From a virus (lineage: Duplodnaviria > Heunggongvirae > Uroviricota > Caudoviricetes), in the IMG/VR virus record IMGVR_UViG_2897346870_000001, positions 1 to 41,297 of that record: a DNA stretch of 41,297 nucleotides. One strand, given 5' to 3'. Position 1 is the first letter of the stretch. Every line of letters begins with the position of its first letter. A program made the translations under genes and the position numbers. Below are positions 2,796 through 35,387 of the stretch, one piece after another. The notes beneath the pieces were generated by a model. The model saw nothing but the letters and a program-made list of their open reading frames with translations. It had not been told where the DNA came from and made no database searches.

Positions 2796-3737
2796 TTACA
2801 TAGATGTTTCGTTTAATTCTTCCCGACGAACGCTGTAAACGTCGGTGGCTTTTGCCAGCAGTTCGTCATCATCTGAAAGTTTTTGTGCAATGTATTTGTA
2901 AGCCTTATCCAGTTCGGAGACAGTGCTGTAATTCATCGCTGCGCTGGTAAAGGCCATCAGCATTTCTTCTGGATCACGGCTATCCGGTTTACGCGTTTGC
3001 TCATCAGGCTTTTTCGCTGGTTTAGCGTTGATCAGACTGTTCATTCCCGCAGCAGTGGTCGTTTGCGGAGTAATGTCTCGCTCAACGCGCGGTGCCGTTT
3101 CCTGTAATTCGTCTGGGGTGTAGACGCCCATGATTACGTCAGGACAGTGCAGGCGAGACCAGCGTTTTGTCGCAAGGTATGCGAGTTGTTGTTTCGGATC
3201 ACTGGCCCAAAGTGTGGAGTTTCTTACCTGTGCTTGAGACAGCATTAACTCAAGCACTCGAGGTTGATCCTCGCCCTTCATGGTTGCCCATACGCGAACA
3301 CCGCAGCCTTCTTCGTCTTTTAGAGTCCAGCCTGGTGCGATATATGGATTGCCGTTTTTGGATGTTTTCTCAACAAACTTACCGATCACGCGTTCCCACG
3401 GCCCGAACCACTCGTAGTTGATGCGATCTTTTGTTGGCGACATCGTTGAGATAACTGCGTTTACTAATTGGGCTTCATAACCTAGCGTGCCGTTCACAAC
3501 ATGGGTTTTCTGAGCCACGGCAAACGGGTTCATTCCCCACTGCGCAGCCTGCATTGCCACGGCCATGCAATCAGCTGGTTTCCCGGCGAGGTGCGCCGGT
3601 ACCGTTACGCGGCTTTGCGCCATTACCTCGGCGAATTTCATCAGTTGGTTCAAGCCGTCTGGGCTGAAAATAGTTGCAGCAGTTCCAGCGATTGCTGTGT
3701 CTACTGGTGCGTTGATGTTTGCGATGTCGTTGCTCAT
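2796..3737 (-). CDS. RecT/Red-beta family single-strand annealing protein
   Basis: About 313 aa; conserved core (CMAVAMQAAQWGMNPF...) and C-terminal pattern comparable to lambda Bet/RecT; directly downstream of and translationally coupled (ATGA at 3734..3737) to a PD-(D/E)XK exonuclease gene. Confidence 0.7.
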   Translation of the reverse strand: MSNDIANINAPVDTAIAGTAATIFSPDGLNQLMKFAEVMAQSRVTVPAHLAGKPADCMAVAMQAAQWGMNPFAVAQKTHVVNGTLGYEAQLVNAVISTMSPTKDRINYEWFGPWERVIGKFVEKTSKNGNPYIAPGWTLKDEEGCGVRVWATMKGEDQPRVLELMLSQAQVRNSTLWASDPKQQLAYLATKRWSRLHCPDVIMGVYTPDELQETAPRVERDITPQTTTAAGMNSLINAKPAKKPDEQTRKPDSRDPEEMLMAFTSAAMNYSTVSELDKAYKYIAQKLSDDDELLAKATDVYSVRREELNETSM

Positions 3738-4555
3738 ATGTACATATCCTGTTTGCGTGCCCACTCAGGGCGTTTAATGATTTCCACACCGCCCCATTCA
3801 TCATTGATGCGGCATTCGTGATAGGTATTCAGATCCCGGCGGAACAGAGCGTGCCCGGCATCGACATCCTGCGCATCCAGCTCGAACACGCGTACCGGAT
3901 ACCGACCACAATCAATGCTTTCGCTCACGGCAAGAAAGAAAAAACCATGCGGCTGACCAGTAACCCTCATTGCGCCTTCGCGGTACATTGCGTCCTGCAC
4001 GTGGTAGCGGAATTCCTCGATGTGGCGTGCAAAACGGTCCATATCTGCAACCTTTTTCACGTCGACGATCACGTTGTGCTCGTTCAGCCATTTGTCTGGA
4101 CGAATTCGGCACAACTCACCCGTCTCTTCATCGTTCCAGTACATTGATGCTTCGCAGTAACCAGGTGCTTCCAGCATCCAGCGTGCCGCCGGATGAGCCA
4201 TTGCGCTATCACGCATCAGCTCCAGTTTTCGCCACTGCTCGACATCAAGTACCGTAATACCCATATCCGCCACATCACGAAGAAATGCTTCTTCGTCAGC
4301 TTTACCTTGTTTTGTCCGACGATCGAACTTCGGTGAAACAATGAAGCGTTTGTCGAATTCTCCAGGCTCCAGAAGCAGACAGTGCAATGCGGTTCCCATA
4401 TCCAGTGCAGACTTTTTCTCTTCGTCTTCTGGTGCTGCCTGAACCCATTTAAGAAGCGCCGGATTCTTGGCAACCATGTCCAGTTGCGACTTACTCACGC
4501 CGTCACCGGCGTGGTAGTCTTCGTTGCTGATGTCGAAATAAATTCCCGGTTTCAT
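3734..4555 (-). CDS. PD-(D/E)XK exonuclease (YqaJ / lambda-Exo-like recombination nuclease)
   Basis: 273 aa; N-terminal GIYFDISNEDYHAG and internal D...E.K signatures of YqaJ-type phage exonucleases; paired with the RecT-like gene. Confidence 0.7.
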   Translation of the reverse strand: MKPGIYFDISNEDYHAGDGVSKSQLDMVAKNPALLKWVQAAPEDEEKKSALDMGTALHCLLLEPGEFDKRFIVSPKFDRRTKQGKADEEAFLRDVADMGITVLDVEQWRKLELMRDSAMAHPAARWMLEAPGYCEASMYWNDEETGELCRIRPDKWLNEHNVIVDVKKVADMDRFARHIEEFRYHVQDAMYREGAMRVTGQPHGFFFLAVSESIDCGRYPVRVFELDAQDVDAGHALFRRDLNTYHECRINDEWGGVEIIKRPEWARKQDMYI

Positions 4556-5159: not shown

Positions 5160-5744
5160 TTATTGTTTGTTTTTTTCGTTCTGGTTGATGACAAATTCAA
5201 TATAACTTTCGATCTTTGCTTTCTCGGTTTCGGGTAACAATGCGTAGCGCGAGCGGTCATAGTTGATGGTCGCAGGGTCGTGCGGGTGAATCAGTAATTC
5301 ATAGCCGTGACGCCCGAATGCGGATGCAACATTCTCCAGGGTGGAAATGGAAACGCTGACCTCATTGTTTAACAGGCGGCTGATTGTCACCTGGGCGACG
5401 CCGGATGCGCGGTGAAGTTTTCCCTGTGTTGAAAGGTCGCGGCTTTCGCTCATCCAGCGTTCCAGGTTGTGAGCCGCCAGCTGACCAATGTCGCTTGGGC
5501 CGACAGGCTGAAAACCTTCCTGAGAAAGCGAGCGATCGATATCAAGCCAGTTACGTGGTTTATTGGCGGCAGCTTCAATTTTTCGCGCAACCTGGTCGCC
5601 GATAACCTTCTTGCCAAGAGCCCAGCGGTTTACCAGATTTGCCTGAGTTCCAAGTTTTTCTGCCATCCGCGTCTGAACACCATTGAATTCACGGTCGATC
5701 AAGTCGTTGAGATTTTGCCTGCGGACGTCCTGGATACTTTTCAT
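5160..5744 (-). CDS. Prophage repressor, tandem HTH (XRE-type), no peptidase S24 domain
   Basis: 194 aa with two HTH-like segments (TRMAEKLGTQANLVNRW and ASGVAQVTISRLLNN); divergent from the Cro-like gene across a three-operator region; no LexA-like Ser/Lys autocleavage module recognised. Confidence 0.75.
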   Translation of the reverse strand: MKSIQDVRRQNLNDLIDREFNGVQTRMAEKLGTQANLVNRWALGKKVIGDQVARKIEAAANKPRNWLDIDRSLSQEGFQPVGPSDIGQLAAHNLERWMSESRDLSTQGKLHRASGVAQVTISRLLNNEVSVSISTLENVASAFGRHGYELLIHPHDPATINYDRSRYALLPETEKAKIESYIEFVINQNEKNKQ

Positions 5745-5799
5745 TTTCTGGAAAATCGCCTCATATATGAATCAGTAGATGATTCAATTTAAAGCAATA

Positions 5800-5862
5800 T
5801 TACCCAACAGGTAAATGCACCTCATAGGTAACTATCCTTGATTTTTGTTACCTTATGGGTGA
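5800..5862. promoter_or_regulatory. Tripartite OR-like operator region with divergent promoters
   Basis: Three 15-bp sites: 5800..5814 TTACCCAACAGGTAA, 5817..5831 GCACCTCATAGGTAA, 5848..5862 TTACCTTATGGGTGA. Candidate rightward promoter (-35 TTGTTA 5845..5850, -10 TATTAT about 5868..5873) overlaps the third site. Confidence 0.55.
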
Positions 5863-5898
5863 ATATTTATTATCTGAAATAAATATCAGGCAATAGCT

Positions 5899-6129
5899 AT
5901 GAGCGATAACGGACATTTCGATTTCAAAAAGCACTGGCTTGCACTTACTCCGGATGAGCGTGAAGCCTTCGCACAGGAAGCCGGAACGACGAGTCACTAT
6001 ATCCAGACTCACTTAACAGGTAAGCGCAAAATGCCAGGTAAAGTATTGATGAATGGGCTTTTTAAAGCCTGTAAAACAAGACAATGGCTGCGCTCAAAAG
6101 CAGAACTGGCATACTTCTTCTACTCATGA
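5899..6129 (+). CDS. Cro-like small HTH regulator
   Basis: 76 aa, divergent from the repressor across the operator cluster and followed by a tR1-like terminator; family assignment is positional rather than by a strong motif. Confidence 0.5.
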   Translation: MSDNGHFDFKKHWLALTPDEREAFAQEAGTTSHYIQTHLTGKRKMPGKVLMNGLFKACKTRQWLRSKAELAYFFYS

Positions 6130-6151
6130 TATCCAGCCACAACCCTCTGTA

Positions 6152-6173
6152 GACCGCCACCCGGCGGTCTTTT
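6152..6173 (+). terminator. tR1-like rho-independent terminator
   Basis: GACCGCC-ACCC-GGCGGTC hairpin followed by TTTT, directly after the Cro-like gene. Confidence 0.6.
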
Positions 6174-6184
6174 CATATCTATTC

Positions 6185-6199
6185 GCACCTCAAAGGTAA
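6185..6199. promoter_or_regulatory. Operator-like palindrome GCACCTCAAAGGTAA
   Basis: Same family as the OR sites; lies between the tR1-like terminator and the next gene. Confidence 0.4.
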
Positions 6200-6279
6200 T
6201 AAAAAACCAAATCTGGTTGATATTTTTTTTGTGTCAGCACAAAATGACCGTAATCCCAATACTAATAACAGGGCTTACC

Positions 6280-8130: not shown

Positions 8131-8207
8131 TTACCTGTTAGGTAATAAAATATTCTAAAATCTATTGATTTCGTGTCTTATGTGGTTTTTAATTACCTCA
8201 GAGGTAA
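8131..8207. promoter_or_regulatory. Two operator palindromes upstream of the nin-like operon
   Basis: 8131..8145 TTACCTGTTAGGTAA and 8193..8207 TTACCTCAGAGGTAA; the second overlaps the Shine-Dalgarno of the 8211 gene; motif ATGTGGTT at 8180..8187. Confidence 0.45.
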
Positions 8208-11428: not shown

Positions 11429-11471
11429 GCATGGTACTATTACCACAACGGTAACTATTACCACGGTGGTT

Positions 11472-13630: not shown

Positions 13631-14137
13631 TTATTGAATTACAATCCAGTCATCAGATAGCAGATCGGTTTGAGATGCCAGCCACGGTACAAAGCAACCG
13701 TCAGCAGTTTTCATCCCAATCCACGGTAGAAGTTTAACGCCAGGTACAAATGTATACTCGTCACCGCATGTAACGTCAAATCGCCAATCGTTCGGAGTGG
13801 CCGATTGCGGTGGCTTAACCAGTTGCAGATACATGCCTTTGCCATTCCATCCGGCACGTGCAATGCGCTTACCATCTTTGAGTGATGACAAAGCAGTGGA
13901 GAAAGATACTGTTGATATTTCAGAACGTTGTGCTGTTATCCAGTCATGGAACGTAACGCTAGTACCATGGTCTTCGCTAAGAGTTAACCCGGCCAGTCCC
14001 TCACTCTGAATTACTTCGTAATGCATTTCATTACCAGCAAAAACGCCATAAAAAACGCAGTCTTCAGCCTGAACGATACGAGAATATTTTAATGGCCATT
14101 CATTTAGATACTTAGCCAACATATCAATTGTTTTCAT
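13631..14137 (-). CDS. DUF2829-domain protein (Tad2-like candidate anti-defence protein) with unknown N-terminal extension
   Basis: C-terminal half carries the DUF2829 hallmarks ARAGWNGKGMYL and WLASQTDLLSDDWIV; leftward gene in an accessory cassette with a tRNA between the terminase and portal. Confidence 0.6.
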   Translation of the reverse strand: MKTIDMLAKYLNEWPLKYSRIVQAEDCVFYGVFAGNEMHYEVIQSEGLAGLTLSEDHGTSVTFHDWITAQRSEISTVSFSTALSSLKDGKRIARAGWNGKGMYLQLVKPPQSATPNDWRFDVTCGDEYTFVPGVKLLPWIGMKTADGCFVPWLASQTDLLSDDWIVIQ

Positions 14138-14335: not shown

Positions 14336-14412
14336 TGGCGTGGCATGCAGGATTCGAACCTGCGACCAACCGCTTAGAAGGCGGTTGCTCTGTCCAACTT
14401 AGCTAATGCCAC
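14336..14412 (-). tRNA. tRNA-Arg (anticodon UCU)
   Basis: 77-nt minus-strand cloverleaf: 7-bp acceptor stem GTGGCAT/ATGCCAC, anticodon stem ACCGC/GCGGT with loop CTTCTAA (UCU), T-arm GCAGG-TTCGAAT-CCTGC, discriminator G plus encoded CCA; close to E. coli argU in the 3' half. Confidence 0.85.
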
Positions 14413-14734: not shown

Positions 14735-14749
14735 TTACCTGAAAGGTAA
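14735..14749. promoter_or_regulatory. Operator-like palindrome TTACCTGAAAGGTAA upstream of the structural operon
   Basis: Perfect-arm copy of the dispersed motif; CATATGTGGTT at 14791..14801. Confidence 0.4.
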
Positions 14750-31412: not shown

Positions 31413-31619
31413 TCATTTTCGTAAAGCCATACAAATCATGGCTTGCACCCCACCGGCAGAAGGTATGGTGATTTCCACCATACCCTTCGAGAAGCGTTGA
31501 GAAATCTTCTTATGTTGAGATTTCCAGTCTAGACCCATTCCCTCAACGATAGGTTTCATTGGGGTGTACGGTTCGCCGTTGTGATTGACAACATAAAGTT
31601 CTGCGCCGTGGAATGGCAC
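31413..31619 (-). pseudogene. Possible truncated antirepressor/Rha-like N-terminal fragment
   Basis: 68-aa GTG-initiated ORF (VVNHNGEPYTPMKPIVEGMGLDWKSQHKKI) resembling N-terminal DNA-binding domains of Rha/Ant proteins, with no Shine-Dalgarno and no C-terminal domain. Confidence 0.2.
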
Positions 31620-31766
31620 GTTGATAGTAGTGACAAATTTGAAACATCGCTGGTTGTAAGCCAGCAGATGCTCGTTATTTTACGTCGCGGCACAATTTCT
31701 CGCTGCTGGCTCTTTTACACGCATTAACCAAATATGGTTGATTTTAATATCCACCTGTGCCTATTA

Positions 31767-31846
31767 TTACCTTTGCGGTAAATTTACATCGCACTCCTCT
31801 TGTGCCATAGTAATCGGGCACTGGCAAAATCCAGTGCCGGGATTGG
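31767..31846. repeat. Inverted repeat IR-A, left copy (antirepressor promoter/leader)
   Basis: About 80 bp, near-identical in reverse complement to 34928..35007; includes operator TTACCTTTGCGGTAA (31767..31781) and the palindromic hairpin GCACTGG-CAAAAT-CCAGTGC. Confidence 0.8.
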
Positions 31847-32048
31847 TCTCCCGGATTACTACAGAGGCACATATGCCGCATAAGCGGTTTTTTTATGTGT
31901 AAAGCGCACCTATTCTATGGTGGGCTGTGTGGGGGCACCGAAAGGTGCGCCGGGTTCCTTTGTAGCCGGTAAGACCAACTCTGCACAGTTCACCACCATC
32001 TGATTGGTCTCAGCGGTGGTGATTAACCTAACTACAAAGGTGATCGCC

Positions 32049-32741
32049 ATGAATACCAAACCTTCCATCTTTTCCTTTGAGTCATCCTGCCAGATCCGTA
32101 TGTTCATGATTGACGGAGAACCTTGGTTTGTCACCAAAGATGTGTGCAATGCTTTGAATATTGATGTTACACAAGCGAGAAAACTTGATAAAAAAGGCTG
32201 GAACAAAAAGGGGCTGTATTCAATACAGACCCCTGGTGGAATACAAGAACTATCCATCGTTTCAGAATCAGGTCTCTACATCCTTATTCTGCGTTGCAAA
32301 GAGGCAATGACTGAGGGAACGAGAGCATTCAGATTTCTTGAATGGGTTACAGGTGAGGTTCTTCCTCAGATCCGCCGCACCGGAAGCTACATTAAAAACT
32401 CGCTCCCGCAGGAAGAGCGCATAAAGATGGTTGCCGACCAGGTAGCCAACGCCACGGCGTCAGCAGTAATGCAGGCGATGAAGATAGAGAACAAAACCTA
32501 CAGTGCCCCACTGAAGCCCGGCTACCGCAGCCTGATTCATTCGCCGTCTGGTGTTCTCGGCCTGACGGAGAACTCACTGCTGATGAATCTGCTGAACCAG
32601 TTACAGGAAGACGGGCATGACGTATCGGGCGCGGCGGCGGAGTTGACCACCATGTTCTGCTACATCGTCGGTGTGAACAAATGCCTGCGTGATATCCAGA
32701 CGCACGCGGAGTACATCAACGACAAAGCAGGGTTCTTCTGA
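32049..32741 (+). CDS. Antirepressor, BRO-N N-terminal domain plus shared C-terminal domain (copy 1)
   Basis: N-terminus MNTKPSIFSFESSCQIRMFMIDGEPWFVTKDVCNALNI is a BRO-N-type fold; C-terminal 125 aa nearly identical to the gene at 34013..34723; AGGTGA Shine-Dalgarno. Confidence 0.7.
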   Translation: MNTKPSIFSFESSCQIRMFMIDGEPWFVTKDVCNALNIDVTQARKLDKKGWNKKGLYSIQTPGGIQELSIVSESGLYILILRCKEAMTEGTRAFRFLEWVTGEVLPQIRRTGSYIKNSLPQEERIKMVADQVANATASAVMQAMKIENKTYSAPLKPGYRSLIHSPSGVLGLTENSLLMNLLNQLQEDGHDVSGAAAELTTMFCYIVGVNKCLRDIQTHAEYINDKAGFF

Positions 32742-32743
32742 CG
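32341..32743. repeat. Inverted repeat IR-B, left copy (3' half of antirepressor 1)
   Basis: About 400 bp, near-identical in reverse complement to 34011..34413; produces mirrored 61-aa artefact ORFs in the track (32392..32577 and 34177..34362). Confidence 0.85.
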
Positions 32744-32778
32744 AGCGGCGGCACAGGGATGTGCAAAACGAAACTATC

Positions 32779-32815
32779 GTGACATGTCACAGGCCGCTTT
32801 CGCGGCCTTGTTTTT
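32779..32815 (+). terminator. GTGACATGTCAC copy 3 fused to a strong rho-independent terminator
   Basis: Palindrome 32779..32790 directly followed by AGGCCGC-TTTC-GCGGCCT plus TGTTTTT (32791..32815). Confidence 0.7.
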
Positions 32816-32975
32816 AACGAATGCCACCGCCACCCGGGCGGGAATCCGCAGAACGCCCACCGCAGCGGGAGCCGTCAGCAGCAGTGTCGCTGTCGTGCTG
32901 ACAACGACCGGCAAAGGCCTGAGTTGAAGCTACCAGAGACAACAAAACGAACAGTGCAGCAAATGCTTTTTTCAT
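32814..32975 (-). CDS. Small secreted protein (53 aa) with signal peptide
   Basis: MKKAFAALFVLLSLVASTQAFA signal peptide then a Gly/Arg/Asp-rich 31-aa mature region with two Cys; start at the internal ATG of track ORF 32814..33047. Confidence 0.4.
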   Translation of the reverse strand: MKKAFAALFVLLSLVASTQAFAGRCQHDSDTAADGSRCGGRSADSRPGGGGIR

Positions 32976-33056
32976 TGTGAAATTTCCATCTATAAACCAC
33001 CTCAATGTGGCGTCAATGAGTGTAGCACTGACTTTTGTTTCGTCCATAAAAAACTA

Positions 33057-33569
33057 CTATGCAGGCTTTTTGGATTTGTACGAATAATCCCACGGATAAA
33101 CATTTCTACTAAGTGGAGCTGTATTCGTTCGTTCATGAAATAATTTTGTGAAATTCAATACGGAATCCATCCAAACTTTTGCGTTAGCTTTGGTGTGTGC
33201 GGGCGGGTCCCAATAAGCTAGTAAGGCTGCATCTCTTATTTCATTGACTGCATATATGAGATATGCGTTACTGGTTGGTTTTGGCCTGTAATTTCCTTGT
33301 TCATCAATCAATCCATATGACCACTCATCCCAACACTGTTCAGTACATGAGTATGAATATGATGCATATTCACCAATATTGACATGAACCTTTCTGAGAT
33401 GGAAGCCTAATACTTCCTCTGGTCTTTCAAAAAGAGTATCTTTTCCCAGATCAGGATGATGACCATGACGCCAGTGTTGTTTAAAAGCATCTTTTAGCGA
33501 AATCAGAAAGTCATCAGTTTTAAACTCACCAGTAGGTATAACCTTCCCGCTATACTCACTCAAAAACAT
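33057..33569 (-). CDS. YafO-like toxin candidate (type II toxin-antitoxin family)
   Basis: By-eye alignment to E. coli YafO recalled from memory: HPDLGKDTLFE vs LPDIFGRDALYD, LRKVHVNI vs ERVAHIHL, AYLIYAVNEIRDAALLAYWDPPAH vs AHLVYCQGAFDEQAWLLIAILKPEPH. AT-rich; overlaps the upstream gene by 14 nt. Confidence 0.5.
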   Translation of the reverse strand: MFLSEYSGKVIPTGEFKTDDFLISLKDAFKQHWRHGHHPDLGKDTLFERPEEVLGFHLRKVHVNIGEYASYSYSCTEQCWDEWSYGLIDEQGNYRPKPTSNAYLIYAVNEIRDAALLAYWDPPAHTKANAKVWMDSVLNFTKLFHERTNTAPLSRNVYPWDYSYKSKKPA

Positions 33570-33882
33570 CGAATTCCTCTTCCTTCATATGCGTTTCTAA
33601 TGAGTTAAGCTGGCGGAAAGATATCTCTTTTGATTCTGCAGATGAGAGCTTTTTTATCCGCTTTATATTCTTTGTGATAGGAATAGACATTGTATGCACA
33701 TCAGCGGATGCTCTTGGCTTTGTGCTGATAAAAATATGGCGCAATGCCGCATTTTCACTATTGAACGAGCCAATAGCTGATTTACGTGCTACAACCTTAC
33801 CAGTAAAAATACGACTCTTGCTACGCTTTGCATGAGTTCCGCTTCTTACCGGACCTCTCATCACGAATCCAAGTTTTGTCAT
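33556..33882 (-). CDS. Putative antitoxin/partner of the YafO-like gene (unknown family)
   Basis: 108 aa, basic with acidic C-terminus (MKEEEFDVFE); first gene of a two-gene overlapping operon; GGAG Shine-Dalgarno. Confidence 0.35.
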   Translation of the reverse strand: MTKLGFVMRGPVRSGTHAKRSKSRIFTGKVVARKSAIGSFNSENAALRHIFISTKPRASADVHTMSIPITKNIKRIKKLSSAESKEISFRQLNSLETHMKEEEFDVFE

Positions 33883-33924
33883 CTTTAATCTCCGGTAAGT
33901 TACAGGTATAAAATAAAAACAGGT

Positions 33925-33939
33925 TTACCTTTAAGGTAA
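33925..33939. promoter_or_regulatory. Operator palindrome TTACCTTTAAGGTAA upstream of the toxin-like operon
   Basis: Perfect-arm copy of the dispersed motif, 43 nt upstream of the 33882 start on the minus strand. Confidence 0.45.
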
Positions 33940-34010
33940 TAGTACGCTATTCACCCACAGTCTGCAATCTGTACAGAATTATTTAAAGGCACATCCCTGT
34001 GCCGCCGTTC

Positions 34011-34413
34011 TGTCAGAAGAACCCTGCCTTGTCGTTGATGTACTCCGCGTGCGTCTGGATATCACGCAGGCATTTGCTCACACCGACGATGTAGCAGAAC
34101 ATGGTGGTCAGTTCCGCCGCCGCGCCCGATACATCATGCCCGTCGTCCTGCAACTGATTCAGCAGATTCATCAGCAATGAGTTCTCCGTCAGGCCGAGAA
34201 CACCAGACGGCGAATGAATCAGACTGCGGTAGCCGGGCTTCAGCGGGGCGCTGTAGGTTTTGTTCTCTATCTTCATCGCCTGCATTACTGCTGACGCCGT
34301 GGCGTTGGCTACCTGGTCGGCAACCATCTTTATGCGTTCTTCCTGCGGGAGCGAGTTTTTAATGTAACTTCCGGTGCGGCGGATCTGAGGAAGAACCTCA
34401 CCTGTAACCCATT
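34011..34413. repeat. Inverted repeat IR-B, right copy
   Basis: Reverse complement of 32341..32743. Confidence 0.85.
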
Positions 34414-34723
34414 TGCGAAAGCGGTAGGGGATAGTGCCTGGTGTCACTGCGTCGCGGCAGCGGAGGATCAGTGTGTAGAGGCCTGACTCGGAGATGATGT
34501 TGATCTCTTTTACTCGGCTGTCAAAAATTGCACGATGTTCATGCCCTATGTTGAACATAGACCTTTCATCATCATCCAGTTTTTCAAGTGCTTGGGTGAC
34601 GTTTTGGATACGCAGCGCACTACAAACGTCTTGGGCTACAAACCATGGTTGGCCATCGATAATGATGGAACGGATAGGGTTAACAGATTCAAATTTGAAG
34701 ATGGCAGTTTGAGCATTAGCCAT
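34013..34723 (-). CDS. Antirepressor, BRO-N N-terminal domain plus shared C-terminal domain (copy 2)
   Basis: N-terminus MANAQTAIFKFESVNPIRSIIIDGQPWFVAQDVCSALRI (BRO-N-type); C-terminal domain differs from copy 1 at only 2 of about 118 residues; GGAG Shine-Dalgarno. Confidence 0.7.
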   Translation of the reverse strand: MANAQTAIFKFESVNPIRSIIIDGQPWFVAQDVCSALRIQNVTQALEKLDDDERSMFNIGHEHRAIFDSRVKEINIISESGLYTLILRCRDAVTPGTIPYRFRKWVTGEVLPQIRRTGSYIKNSLPQEERIKMVADQVANATASAVMQAMKIENKTYSAPLKPGYRSLIHSPSGVLGLTENSLLMNLLNQLQDDGHDVSGAAAELTTMFCYIVGVSKCLRDIQTHAEYINDKAGFF

Positions 34724-34927
34724 GGTGGTTATCTCCACTTAGTGATTTTAATCACCACCGCAACGCCAATTACTGGTGGTGAACTGGACAAGGTTGGCGT
34801 ACCGGCCTAAGTGGTACCGGCGTCCTTTCGGACCCCTGCCCAGCCCACCATAATTCGGATATAGCTGTGCTTAACGCATAAAAAAACCACGTCTGGCGTG
34901 GTATGCGCCACTTAGTAACTCGGGACG

Positions 34928-35007
34928 CCAATCCCGGCACTGGATTTTGCCAGTACCCGATTACTATGGCACAAGAGGAGTGCGATGTAAATTTACCTCA
35001 AAGGTAA
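34928..35007. repeat. Inverted repeat IR-A, right copy (antirepressor 2 promoter/leader)
   Basis: Reverse complement of 31767..31846; contains operator at 34993..35007 (TTACCTCAAAGGTAA). Confidence 0.8.
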
Positions 35008-35038
35008 ATATAAGCACTCCACTTGGTAATTGCAAACC

Positions 35039-35296
35039 TTATCTGGTTTGCTTTCGTAATTGTTCGGCACAATAGTCGAGATGTGTTTGCAGATCCTGCA
35101 TAGACATCTGTGAGCTGGTGACGTAGTTAATCAGTGCAGTCAGTTCGGCAAGTGGGCCATCGACATTAAATCCATCCTTATCGAGATCCCGGAGTAATTT
35201 CATCAAGTGCGATCCCTCCACCAGTGATCTGACGCCTCCCGGCGTGTGAATCCTTTCGGTAAATCCCTCTTCCAGTGGATAGTGATACTGCTGCAT
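35039..35296 (-). CDS. Stand-alone paralogue of the antirepressor C-terminal domain
   Basis: 85 aa; TPGGVRSLVEGSHLMKLLRDLDKDGFNVDGPLAELTALINYV...DLQTH parallels SPSGVLGLTENSLLMNLLNQLQEDGHDVSGAAAELTTMFCYI...DIQTH of the two antirepressors; GGAGAAG Shine-Dalgarno. Confidence 0.45.
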   Translation of the reverse strand: MQQYHYPLEEGFTERIHTPGGVRSLVEGSHLMKLLRDLDKDGFNVDGPLAELTALINYVTSSQMSMQDLQTHLDYCAEQLRKQTR

Positions 35297-35372
35297 CTTA
35301 TCTTCTCCATGCAATAACTGTATAAATATACAGTATCAAATAATTTGTTTGCTATCCAGCACGTTTTGCAAA

Positions 35373-35387
35373 TCACCTGAAAGGTAA
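35373..35387. promoter_or_regulatory. Operator-like palindrome TCACCTGAAAGGTAA in the divergent region before the tailspike
   Basis: One-mismatch copy of the motif; CATATGTGGTT at 35418..35428. Confidence 0.4.

Follow-up and report, generated by a model that had tools for sequence, protein, structure and literature searches.

We analysed a 41,297-nt stretch of viral DNA (IMG/VR virus record IMGVR_UViG_2897346870_000001; the whole stretch is called the window below), which by its sequence is an epsilon15/phiV10-type (Uetakevirus-like) E. coli prophage. The element in question is a cassette of two small genes lying between two inverted antirepressor units (31757-32764 and 33989-35017). Its first gene encodes a 108-aa protein (the partner, a putative antidote) and its second a 170-aa YafO-like toxin. 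All elements of the cassette are on the minus strand (Table 1). The two genes overlap by 14 nt (ATGTTTTTGAGTGA), and the ribosome site of the toxin gene is a purine-rich stretch within the 3' end of the partner gene. An earlier interpretation made from the letters alone (the sequence-only reading) had described the module as AT-rich prophage cargo. This description fits both its composition (38.7% GC for the two-gene cargo, against 49.8% for the window and 57.4% for the neighbouring gene of a small secreted peptide) and the variable content of the slot that it occupies. A terminator present elsewhere 3' of the toxin stop codon (AAGCCCGCaTAGCGGGCTTTTT) is broken in the window (aagcctgcatagtagtttttt), so that read-through into the peptide gene is possible. 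No tandem repeats that could provide a ToxIN-like (type III) RNA antidote and no Rfam family were found within 32700-34050.

We compared the 170-aa protein with known toxins by several techniques. The YafO profile PF13957 matched it over positions 7-100 of 101 with an E-value of 7e-4 and 20.1 bits, the Pfam gathering score being 25 bits. All 17 aligned members of the toxin family matched the same profile (E <= 0.01; best E 8e-6), and gp44 of TL-2011b, which is 32% identical to the window toxin (tblastn E 3e-19), scored 26.3 bits and thus over the gathering score. Alignment to K-12 YafO with hhalign covered 111 columns (E 0.004), with the blocks GKD.LF/GRD.LY, R..H, LIY/LVY and P.H. Seven positions shared with YafO were invariant in the family (G42, K43, D44, R59, H62, Y106 and H125). 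Compared with YafO, the family has an extra insertion of 25-30 residues (residues 66-95), with a conserved Cys and Trp, and longer termini. The AlphaFold2 (AF2) model of the toxin, of low confidence, resembled the folds of RelE, HigB, YoeB and YafQ. Single-sequence and profile searches of PDB chains found no relative of the toxin family, YafO included, and a BFVD fold search gave no match. RefSeq names exactly this protein "type II toxin-antitoxin system YafO family toxin". By sequence and model, then, the 170-aa protein is a divergent member of the YafO family with a predicted RelE-type fold. YafO itself is classed as a ribosome-dependent mRNA endonuclease (PMC11869752).

The partner gave no match in Pfam, NCBIfam or PADLOC, nor among PDB sequences when searched there as a single sequence or as a profile, and no known DNA-binding domain was found in it by Pfam, NCBIfam, PDB profile or AF2. 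A word-indexed search returned six relatives. When 1.84 billion representative proteins were searched exhaustively with an HMMER profile, only 14 matched, nine of them below 1e-10, and the convincing ones were all 104-116 aa long and of the same family. Judged from these searches, the family of the partner is an orphan and very small, with about a dozen sequence clusters. Two claims of the sequence-only reading were therefore borne out: the YafO-likeness of the toxin, by the near-full-length profile match, the family-wide matches and the hhalign blocks, and the lack of a recognisable antitoxin fold in the partner. Profile searching of the two proteins itself gave a match below the gathering score for the toxin and no family for the partner.

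Members of the partner family share a near-invariant N-terminus (MTKLGFVMRG…KRRK.R, with MTKLGFVMRG in most members), a variable middle and a conserved C-terminus, ISAE.S.ELSFRMLNSLEDRMKEE.FD.FE. The calculated isoelectric point is 12.0 for the first 78 residues and 4.5 for the last 30, and the AF2 model, built on a shallow alignment, shows disorder apart from a helix at residues 89-107. Mean pairwise identity was 48.6% among partners and 72.5% among toxins (r = 0.75 between both sets), and by this measure the partner evolves faster than the toxin. The C-terminal 37 columns of the partner align end to end (E 3.6e-4) with a 139-aa protein of EC.W1-9 that is otherwise dissimilar and is there the partner of a 47%-identical YafO-like toxin. 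Such a shared C-terminus with a differing remainder suggests the pattern of a modular antidote, in which a toxin-specific C-terminal segment is joined to a replaceable N-terminal part. The partner had no match to PF02604. A YafN-like tail had seemed possible by eye and in hhalign against a single YafN (E 0.08; …M.EEEFDVFE against …MTDDDFNDFKE), and was ruled out when a 24-sequence YafN alignment was compared with an 11-sequence partner alignment, for which hhalign aligned nothing.

The full cassette was found in 68 of 5,426 complete E. coli genomes, intact at 99% identity. At every locus where the toxin was found, the partner preceded it with the identical 14-nt overlap; partners of 104-120 aa with this overlap also occur in Salmonella, Serratia and Enterobacter loci, in several contexts. 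The ribosome site ACCGGAGAT…ATG is common to all seven module-bearing loci of the alignment. The constant partner-first order with its 14-nt overlap points to translational coupling. The layout is that of a type II system, with adjacent, co-oriented, overlapping and co-inherited small genes, the antidote first. PADLOC-DB 2.0 gave no defence-system match for the toxin, the partner, the peptide or the other cargo of the slot, and the literature searched yielded no paper describing the cassette or its operator experimentally.

Immediately upstream of the cargo lies an operator, TTACCTTAAAGGTAA, with a perfect TTACC-N5-GGTAA palindrome. The window contains 14 sites of this kind (0.64 expected by chance), ten of them perfect, and the ten perfect copies are all intergenic as judged by eye against the list of open reading frames (ORFs). 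The repressor gene has two copies on its left and three on its right; further copies precede a DUF1064 gene, the terminase genes, a tRNA and a Tad2-like gene, both antirepressor (ant) genes and the cassette. We found 14 copies of the palindrome at corresponding places in phiV10, which is without the cassette, and the RefSeq record of epsilon15 (NC_004775) annotates ATTACC-N5-GGTAAT 17-mers as "protein_bind: repressor". From the phiV10 copies and the epsilon15 annotation, the palindrome is a backbone feature of the phage group, with the prophage repressor as its presumed binder. Across the aligned loci the half-sites TTAC and GGTAA are invariant and the fifth base of the left half-site is C in eight of nine (A in L018), while spacer and flanks vary. 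The claim of a perfect copy of the dispersed operator at the promoter was thus confirmed.

A candidate promoter was assigned by eye directly 5' of this operator, with the -35 17 nt upstream of the -10, and its -10/+1 region is covered by the palindrome. The promoters of the two ant units (Pant1 and Pant2) have the same geometry and were called by a consensus scan. Abutment of a -10 and an operator was seen at 31762-31781 (Pant1), 35007-34993 (Pant2), 8188-8207 and 11435-11454. Other module-bearing loci have, at the matching place immediately 5' of the operator, -35/-10 pairs that look plausible by eye. In the window, the candidate -35 is directly preceded by a perfect palindrome of 10 bp, TCTGTACAGA (33968-33977, minus strand). 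The E. coli slot keeps this palindrome, and L019 largely does.

Comparison with related phages and prophages showed that the cassette occupies a dedicated place. Their sequences match the window up to about 33053 and then again from the operator leftwards. TL-2011b and several E. coli prophages agree with the window over the region that starts at the ant stop codon, contains TTGCAG-17-TACTAT and ends at the operator; they differ there by a few substitutions, and one of the prophages has a short deletion. Beyond the operator the cargo diverges, being a second YafO-type pair, a DUF4760 protein or a 210-aa orphan, and the sequences reconverge at the terminator, followed by GTGGACGAAAC… and the peptide gene. 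In EC.W1-9 the main slot holds a DUF2335 pair with its own promoter and again a perfect operator. The slot flanks of this common E. coli prophage type were found in 534 of the 5,426 complete genomes. As the same operator-gated promoter stands before unrelated cargo, it belongs to the slot and not to this module. The operator-bearing promoter of the sequence-only reading is present, but it is the built-in left end of the cargo slot rather than module-specific. By sequence, operator-gated two-gene cargo is recurrent in the epsilon15-like phage group. EC.W1-9 (L004) has, besides its DUF2335 and 108-aa pair in the main slot (3281-4082, minus strand), a second, YafO-like pair (139 aa and 168 aa; 5340-6255, plus strand) across ant, with a one-mismatch operator.

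The cassette also moves between phages. A 987-bp segment with some 90 bp of promoter, the operator, the two genes and the terminator shows 98% identity when L021, an epsilon15-like prophage, is compared with a lambdoid prophage (L020, L022, L023); the toxin protein is the same in both. No third (regulator) gene, as in systems of the paaR2-paaA2-parE2 type, was found inside this unit. The lambdoid copy lies between the Q antiterminator and the lysis genes, and it has the only perfect palindrome in 20 kb, a stretch that includes a CI/S24-type immunity region. Judged from its sequence, the unit has undergone recent horizontal transfer between unrelated phage backbones. This transfer is so recent that it is no proof of the site working without an epsilon15-type repressor. 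Loci with AlpA and integrase genes ("islands" L007, L008, L018 and L024) were rejected as independent, non-phage contexts and were not counted: in size and order their neighbouring genes, among them what look like the same large virion genes beside the slot, suggest remnants of rearranged epsilon15-like prophages.

The two antirepressor units flanking the cargo are each made up of a promoter with an operator, two RNAs (isrK-like and C4 antisense) and a Bro-N ant gene. The isrK-like and C4 RNAs before both ant genes scored 63-79 bits in Rfam, above gathering, and by their sequence these RNA leaders are a duplicated P1 immI-type antisense control of antirepressor expression. A terminator scan found no terminator between ant2 and the cassette, so that read-through from Pant2 (operator 34993-35007) is possible. 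Homologues of the window repressor in phiV10 and epsilon15 carry the annotation "repressor". In the related phage ZX5, overexpression of the repressor blocks the lytic cycle and Ant promotes it (PMC9782041).

We somewhat favour the reading, at a probability of roughly 0.55, that the pair is a mobile two-gene toxin–antidote cassette in a dedicated slot at the end of the antirepressor (immI-like) region, gated by the prophage repressor. In the lysogen, the repressor with its two helix-turn-helix (HTH) domains would act in trans, occupying 33925-33939 and the Pant2 operator and thereby switching off both the cassette promoter and read-through from ant2. It would thereby take the place of a DNA-binding domain, which appears to be missing from the antidote. 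Where the repressor is absent, as in a fresh infection, or has been inactivated by Ant, a bicistronic mRNA would be made with the other operator-controlled units, and toxin and partner would be produced by coupled translation. The partner would then hold the RelE-fold ribonuclease (RNase) through its conserved acidic C-terminal helix and neutralise it, and free toxin would cleave ribosome-bound mRNA as YafO does. The pair would be used in the lytic phase, for shut-off or timing of host translation or to harm competitors. Such a role is suggested by the regulation shared with the lytic units and the Tad2-like gene and by the stx-like position in the lambdoid phage. More tentatively, the master repressor acting in trans may be the missing DNA-binding component of the system, the toxin being silent in the lysogen and deployed lytically from a general "lytic-phase cargo" slot; deployment would in that case serve host translation shut-off or be directed against co-infecting or co-induced competitors.

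Several points weigh against repressor gating of a toxin–antidote pair. The -35 and -10 were assigned by eye, are weak (-35 3/6; 7/12 in total) and were missed by the consensus scan. The window toxin scores under the Pfam gathering score, and the AF2 models of toxin and partner are both of low confidence, with predicted local distance difference test (pLDDT) values of 54 and 56. A single operator may repress partly, in which case low-level production of the pair in the lysogen is possible. The basic N-terminal 78 residues of the partner, with their near-invariant motif, may give it a DNA- or RNA-binding role of its own. Toxicity, neutralisation and repression of the pair are read from sequence and models, and a lytic-phase function is argued only from regulation and analogy.

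One alternative is that the pair regulates itself, as an ordinary type II pair would: the partner, or the partner–toxin complex, would bind the palindrome, whose likeness to the phage operators would be mimicry or shared ancestry. The palindrome does travel inside the 987-bp unit, the lambdoid prophage, whose repressor is of the CI/S24 type, has no other perfect copy, and the partner has a very basic N-terminus with near-invariant MTKLGFVMRG. However, it also stands at 13 other sites in the window, where it brackets the repressor gene, and at 14 in phiV10, which has no module. Unrelated slot cargo without the partner has the same operator, and no DNA-binding fold was detected in the partner by Pfam, AF2 or PDB profile. 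The lambdoid copy is very recent (98% identity), so its retention there is uninformative on selection. We regard self-regulation as distinctly unlikely. A private operator of the module was likewise set aside as unlikely, given the phiV10 copies, the slot-wide operator and the recent transfer. An anti-phage role by abortive infection or exclusion, which the sequence-only reading had put forward, would have a leaky promoter supply a pool of complex that an incoming phage triggers, protecting the lysogen. Defence is a frequent function of toxin–antitoxin pairs in prophage hot spots, the cargo of the slot is rapidly exchanged, and a single operator may leak. Against this stand the lack of a PADLOC match for the pair or the other slot cargo, the covering of -10/+1 by the operator, as at lytic promoters, and the same operator arrangement at the Tad2-like anti-defence gene, whose function is in the lytic phase; the place between Q and the lysis genes is, moreover, one of late expression. 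Going by where the site lies, the module is plausibly repressed in the lysogen. A module silent there cannot protect the lysogen, so the proposed defence role does not follow. We consider it unlikely.

Two further explanations dispense with a benefit to the phage or with toxicity. As a selfish addiction cassette, the pair would kill or arrest the cell when the genes are lost after expression, and would have inherited its operator from the slot. This would agree with a self-contained cassette that moves between unrelated phage backbones, and the paaA2-parE2 pair of a cryptic prophage is addictive (PMC8630535). If the cassette is silent in the lysogen, however, there would be no complex there for post-segregational killing, and the 99% identity in 68 E. 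coli genomes is uninformative either way; we find addiction very unlikely. Least probable of all to us is a non-toxic pair, in which the YafO-like protein would be an RNA- or ribosome-binding factor with a basic partner. The Cys/Trp insertion and the terminal extensions, which YafO lacks, and the Pfam match below threshold speak for it. The blocks shared with YafO are nevertheless invariant in the toxin family, and gene order, overlap and a faster-evolving partner are typical of toxin–antitoxin pairs.

The gene of the 53-aa secreted peptide had been counted as the third member of the cassette. We rejected this: the gene is conserved backbone that flanks DUF4760, 210-aa and DUF2335 cargo elsewhere, is parted from cargo by the terminator, and is absent beside the module in six other contexts (L006, L009, L010, L020, L021 and L024). 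By sequence, it is an independent neighbour forming the conserved right flank of the slot. The protein has a typical signal peptide (MKKAFAALFVLLSLVASTQAFA followed by GRC…) and a 31-residue mature part, GRCQHDSDTAADGSRCGGRSADSRPGGGGIR, with two Cys. It is identical in TL-2011b and matches PHROG 14503, a "membrane associated protein"; a diverged copy in L018 (3596 onward) is conserved at the protein level. Its gene has a separate, weak candidate promoter, which may drive expression in the lysogen. Of the 534 E. coli genomes with a hit, many match the stretch 32778-33053, which holds the peptide gene; the same 53-aa protein, WP_000708858.1, is annotated in those rows that were examined.

Further features were observed around the slot and elsewhere in the prophage. 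The inverted ant duplication comprises the promoter with its operator, the RNA leader, the ant gene and a 22-nt tail; its arms are 89-95% complementary and flank the peptide gene and the cargo, and arm-to-arm recombination could flip this segment. The repressor gene is bracketed by a two-site left operator (5026, 5088) and a three-site right operator (5800, ~5822, 5848), and in this distributed layout more copies stand before most transcription units, including the terminase genes (11440/11458). Between the terminase genes and the portal gene lie those of the Tad2-like (Thoeris anti-defence 2) protein (PF11195, E 1e-23; 13631-14137, minus strand) and the tRNA (14339-14412, minus strand), with a perfect operator upstream of both at 14735-14749. 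The profile of the P22 antirepressor N-terminal domain (PF10547) matches a 68-aa ORF (31413-31619, minus strand) with E 7e-21; by its sequence this ORF is probably what is left of a third antirepressor gene. A 91-aa ORF (35039-35314, minus strand) resembles the Ant C-terminal domain by eye (…LMKLLRDLDKDGFNVDGPLAELTALINYV…DLQTHLDY) and has an operator-like site at 35373-35387. From position and size it is probably the counterpart of phiV10 p24 and epsilon15 gp19, and it would represent the Ant C-domain as a separate protein, controlled from an operator of its own.

Table 1. Features of the cassette and its surroundings; positions refer to the window unless a locus is named.
Feature	Position	Strand	Remarks
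108-aa partner gene (putative antidote)	33882..33556	-	Shine-Dalgarno GGAG 33893..33890
170-aa YafO-family toxin gene, predicted RelE/ParE-type fold	33569..33057	-	PF13957 match, RefSeq name
Variable cargo itself	33054..33924	-	between conserved promoter/operator and conserved backbone
Operator, perfect TTACC-N5-GGTAA	33939..33925	palindrome	copy of the dispersed site
Candidate -35 of slot promoter, TTGCAG	33962..33967	-	by eye; 17 nt upstream of TACTAT
Candidate -10 of slot promoter, TACTAT	33939..33944	-	final T is first operator base
ant2, Bro-N antirepressor gene	34013..34738	-	directly upstream of cassette, same strand
isrK-like and C4 RNAs of ant unit 1	31818-31894, 31913-32000	+	Rfam
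isrK-like and C4 RNAs of ant unit 2	34880-34956, 34772-34855	-	Rfam
Prophage repressor gene, two HTH domains, without S24 peptidase domain	5160..5744	-	presumed operator binder
53-aa secreted peptide gene	32975..32814	-	81 bases past toxin gene; separate backbone
Weak candidate peptide promoter	TTGACG 33016..33011, TATAGA 32994..32989	-	by eye; 16 nt between the two
GC-rich hairpin terminator	32791..32808	+	ends convergent ant1 unit; also just past peptide gene
987-bp cassette	L020/L022/L023 9542-10528; L021 9542-10528		98% identity

RefSeq already annotates the toxin. The novelty lies in the orphan antidote family and in the cargo slot with its presumed repressor gating. Prophage toxin–antitoxin pairs are usually read as addiction or defence systems active in the lysogen, and the sequence logic here points the opposite way. 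The slot offers the same gated promoter to whichever cargo arrives and marks a cargo hot spot of a common E. coli prophage type. If the proposed gating were confirmed, the cassette would make a clean small system, of less than 1 kb plus one repressor, in which to ask what a ribosome-dependent RNase does for a phage in lytic growth, how a toxin–antidote pair cedes transcriptional control to its host element, and how a disordered, highly basic antidote neutralises a RelE-fold toxin.

Among known systems, K-12 YafN–YafO has a toxin of the same family (PF13957) and an antidote gene that lies upstream of the toxin gene and adjoins it, and the ribosome-dependent mRNA cleavage of YafO would be expected here by homology (PMC11869752). 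The partner, however, is not of the Phd/YefM type, there being no family-to-family hhalign similarity to YafN. The toxin has 170 aa and a Cys/Trp insertion, whereas YafO has 132 aa, and the pair is phage cargo under a phage operator, whereas yafN–yafO belongs to a chromosomal SOS operon (the dinB operon). By analogy, paaR2–paaA2–parE2 of CP-933P is the closest documented case, with the opposite polarity. Alike are the RelE/ParE-superfamily toxin, an antidote that does not regulate transcription and a connection with prophage immunity circuitry (PMC8630535). There, a phage CI-like repressor encoded in the operon regulates transcription, and expression of the pair takes place in the repressed, lysogenic state (PMC8630535); here, regulation would come in trans from a distance of 28 kb, through a site placed to silence the genes in the lysogen, and the toxin family differs.

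Closer relatives are found within the same phage group. TL-2011b gp45–gp44 and the 139-aa/168-aa pair of EC.W1-9 also combine a YafO-like toxin (32% and 47% identity) with an upstream TTACC-N5-GGTAA, and the TL-2011b pair uses the identical slot promoter. Their partners differ in length and in their N-terminal parts; only that of EC.W1-9 shares the C-terminal segment, and similarity between gp45 and the 108-aa partner was not detectable. The P1 immI operon (c4 RNA – icd – ant) is similar in that a host-arresting gene sits in an antirepressor operon and is released together with Ant, and the isrK/C4 leaders of both window ant units recall its layout. In P1, icd encodes a cell-division inhibitor upstream of ant, without an antidote; here a toxin–antidote pair lies downstream of ant and has its own promoter. 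Finally, late prophage cargo such as stx sits between Q and the lysis genes and is kept silent in lysogens until the lytic programme brings its expression, as would be the case for the pair in the window; it is in this position that the 987-bp cassette is found in an Enterobacter lambdoid prophage. The control suggested by the window sequence would differ from that of stx, being direct binding of the repressor at the cargo promoter rather than Q antitermination.

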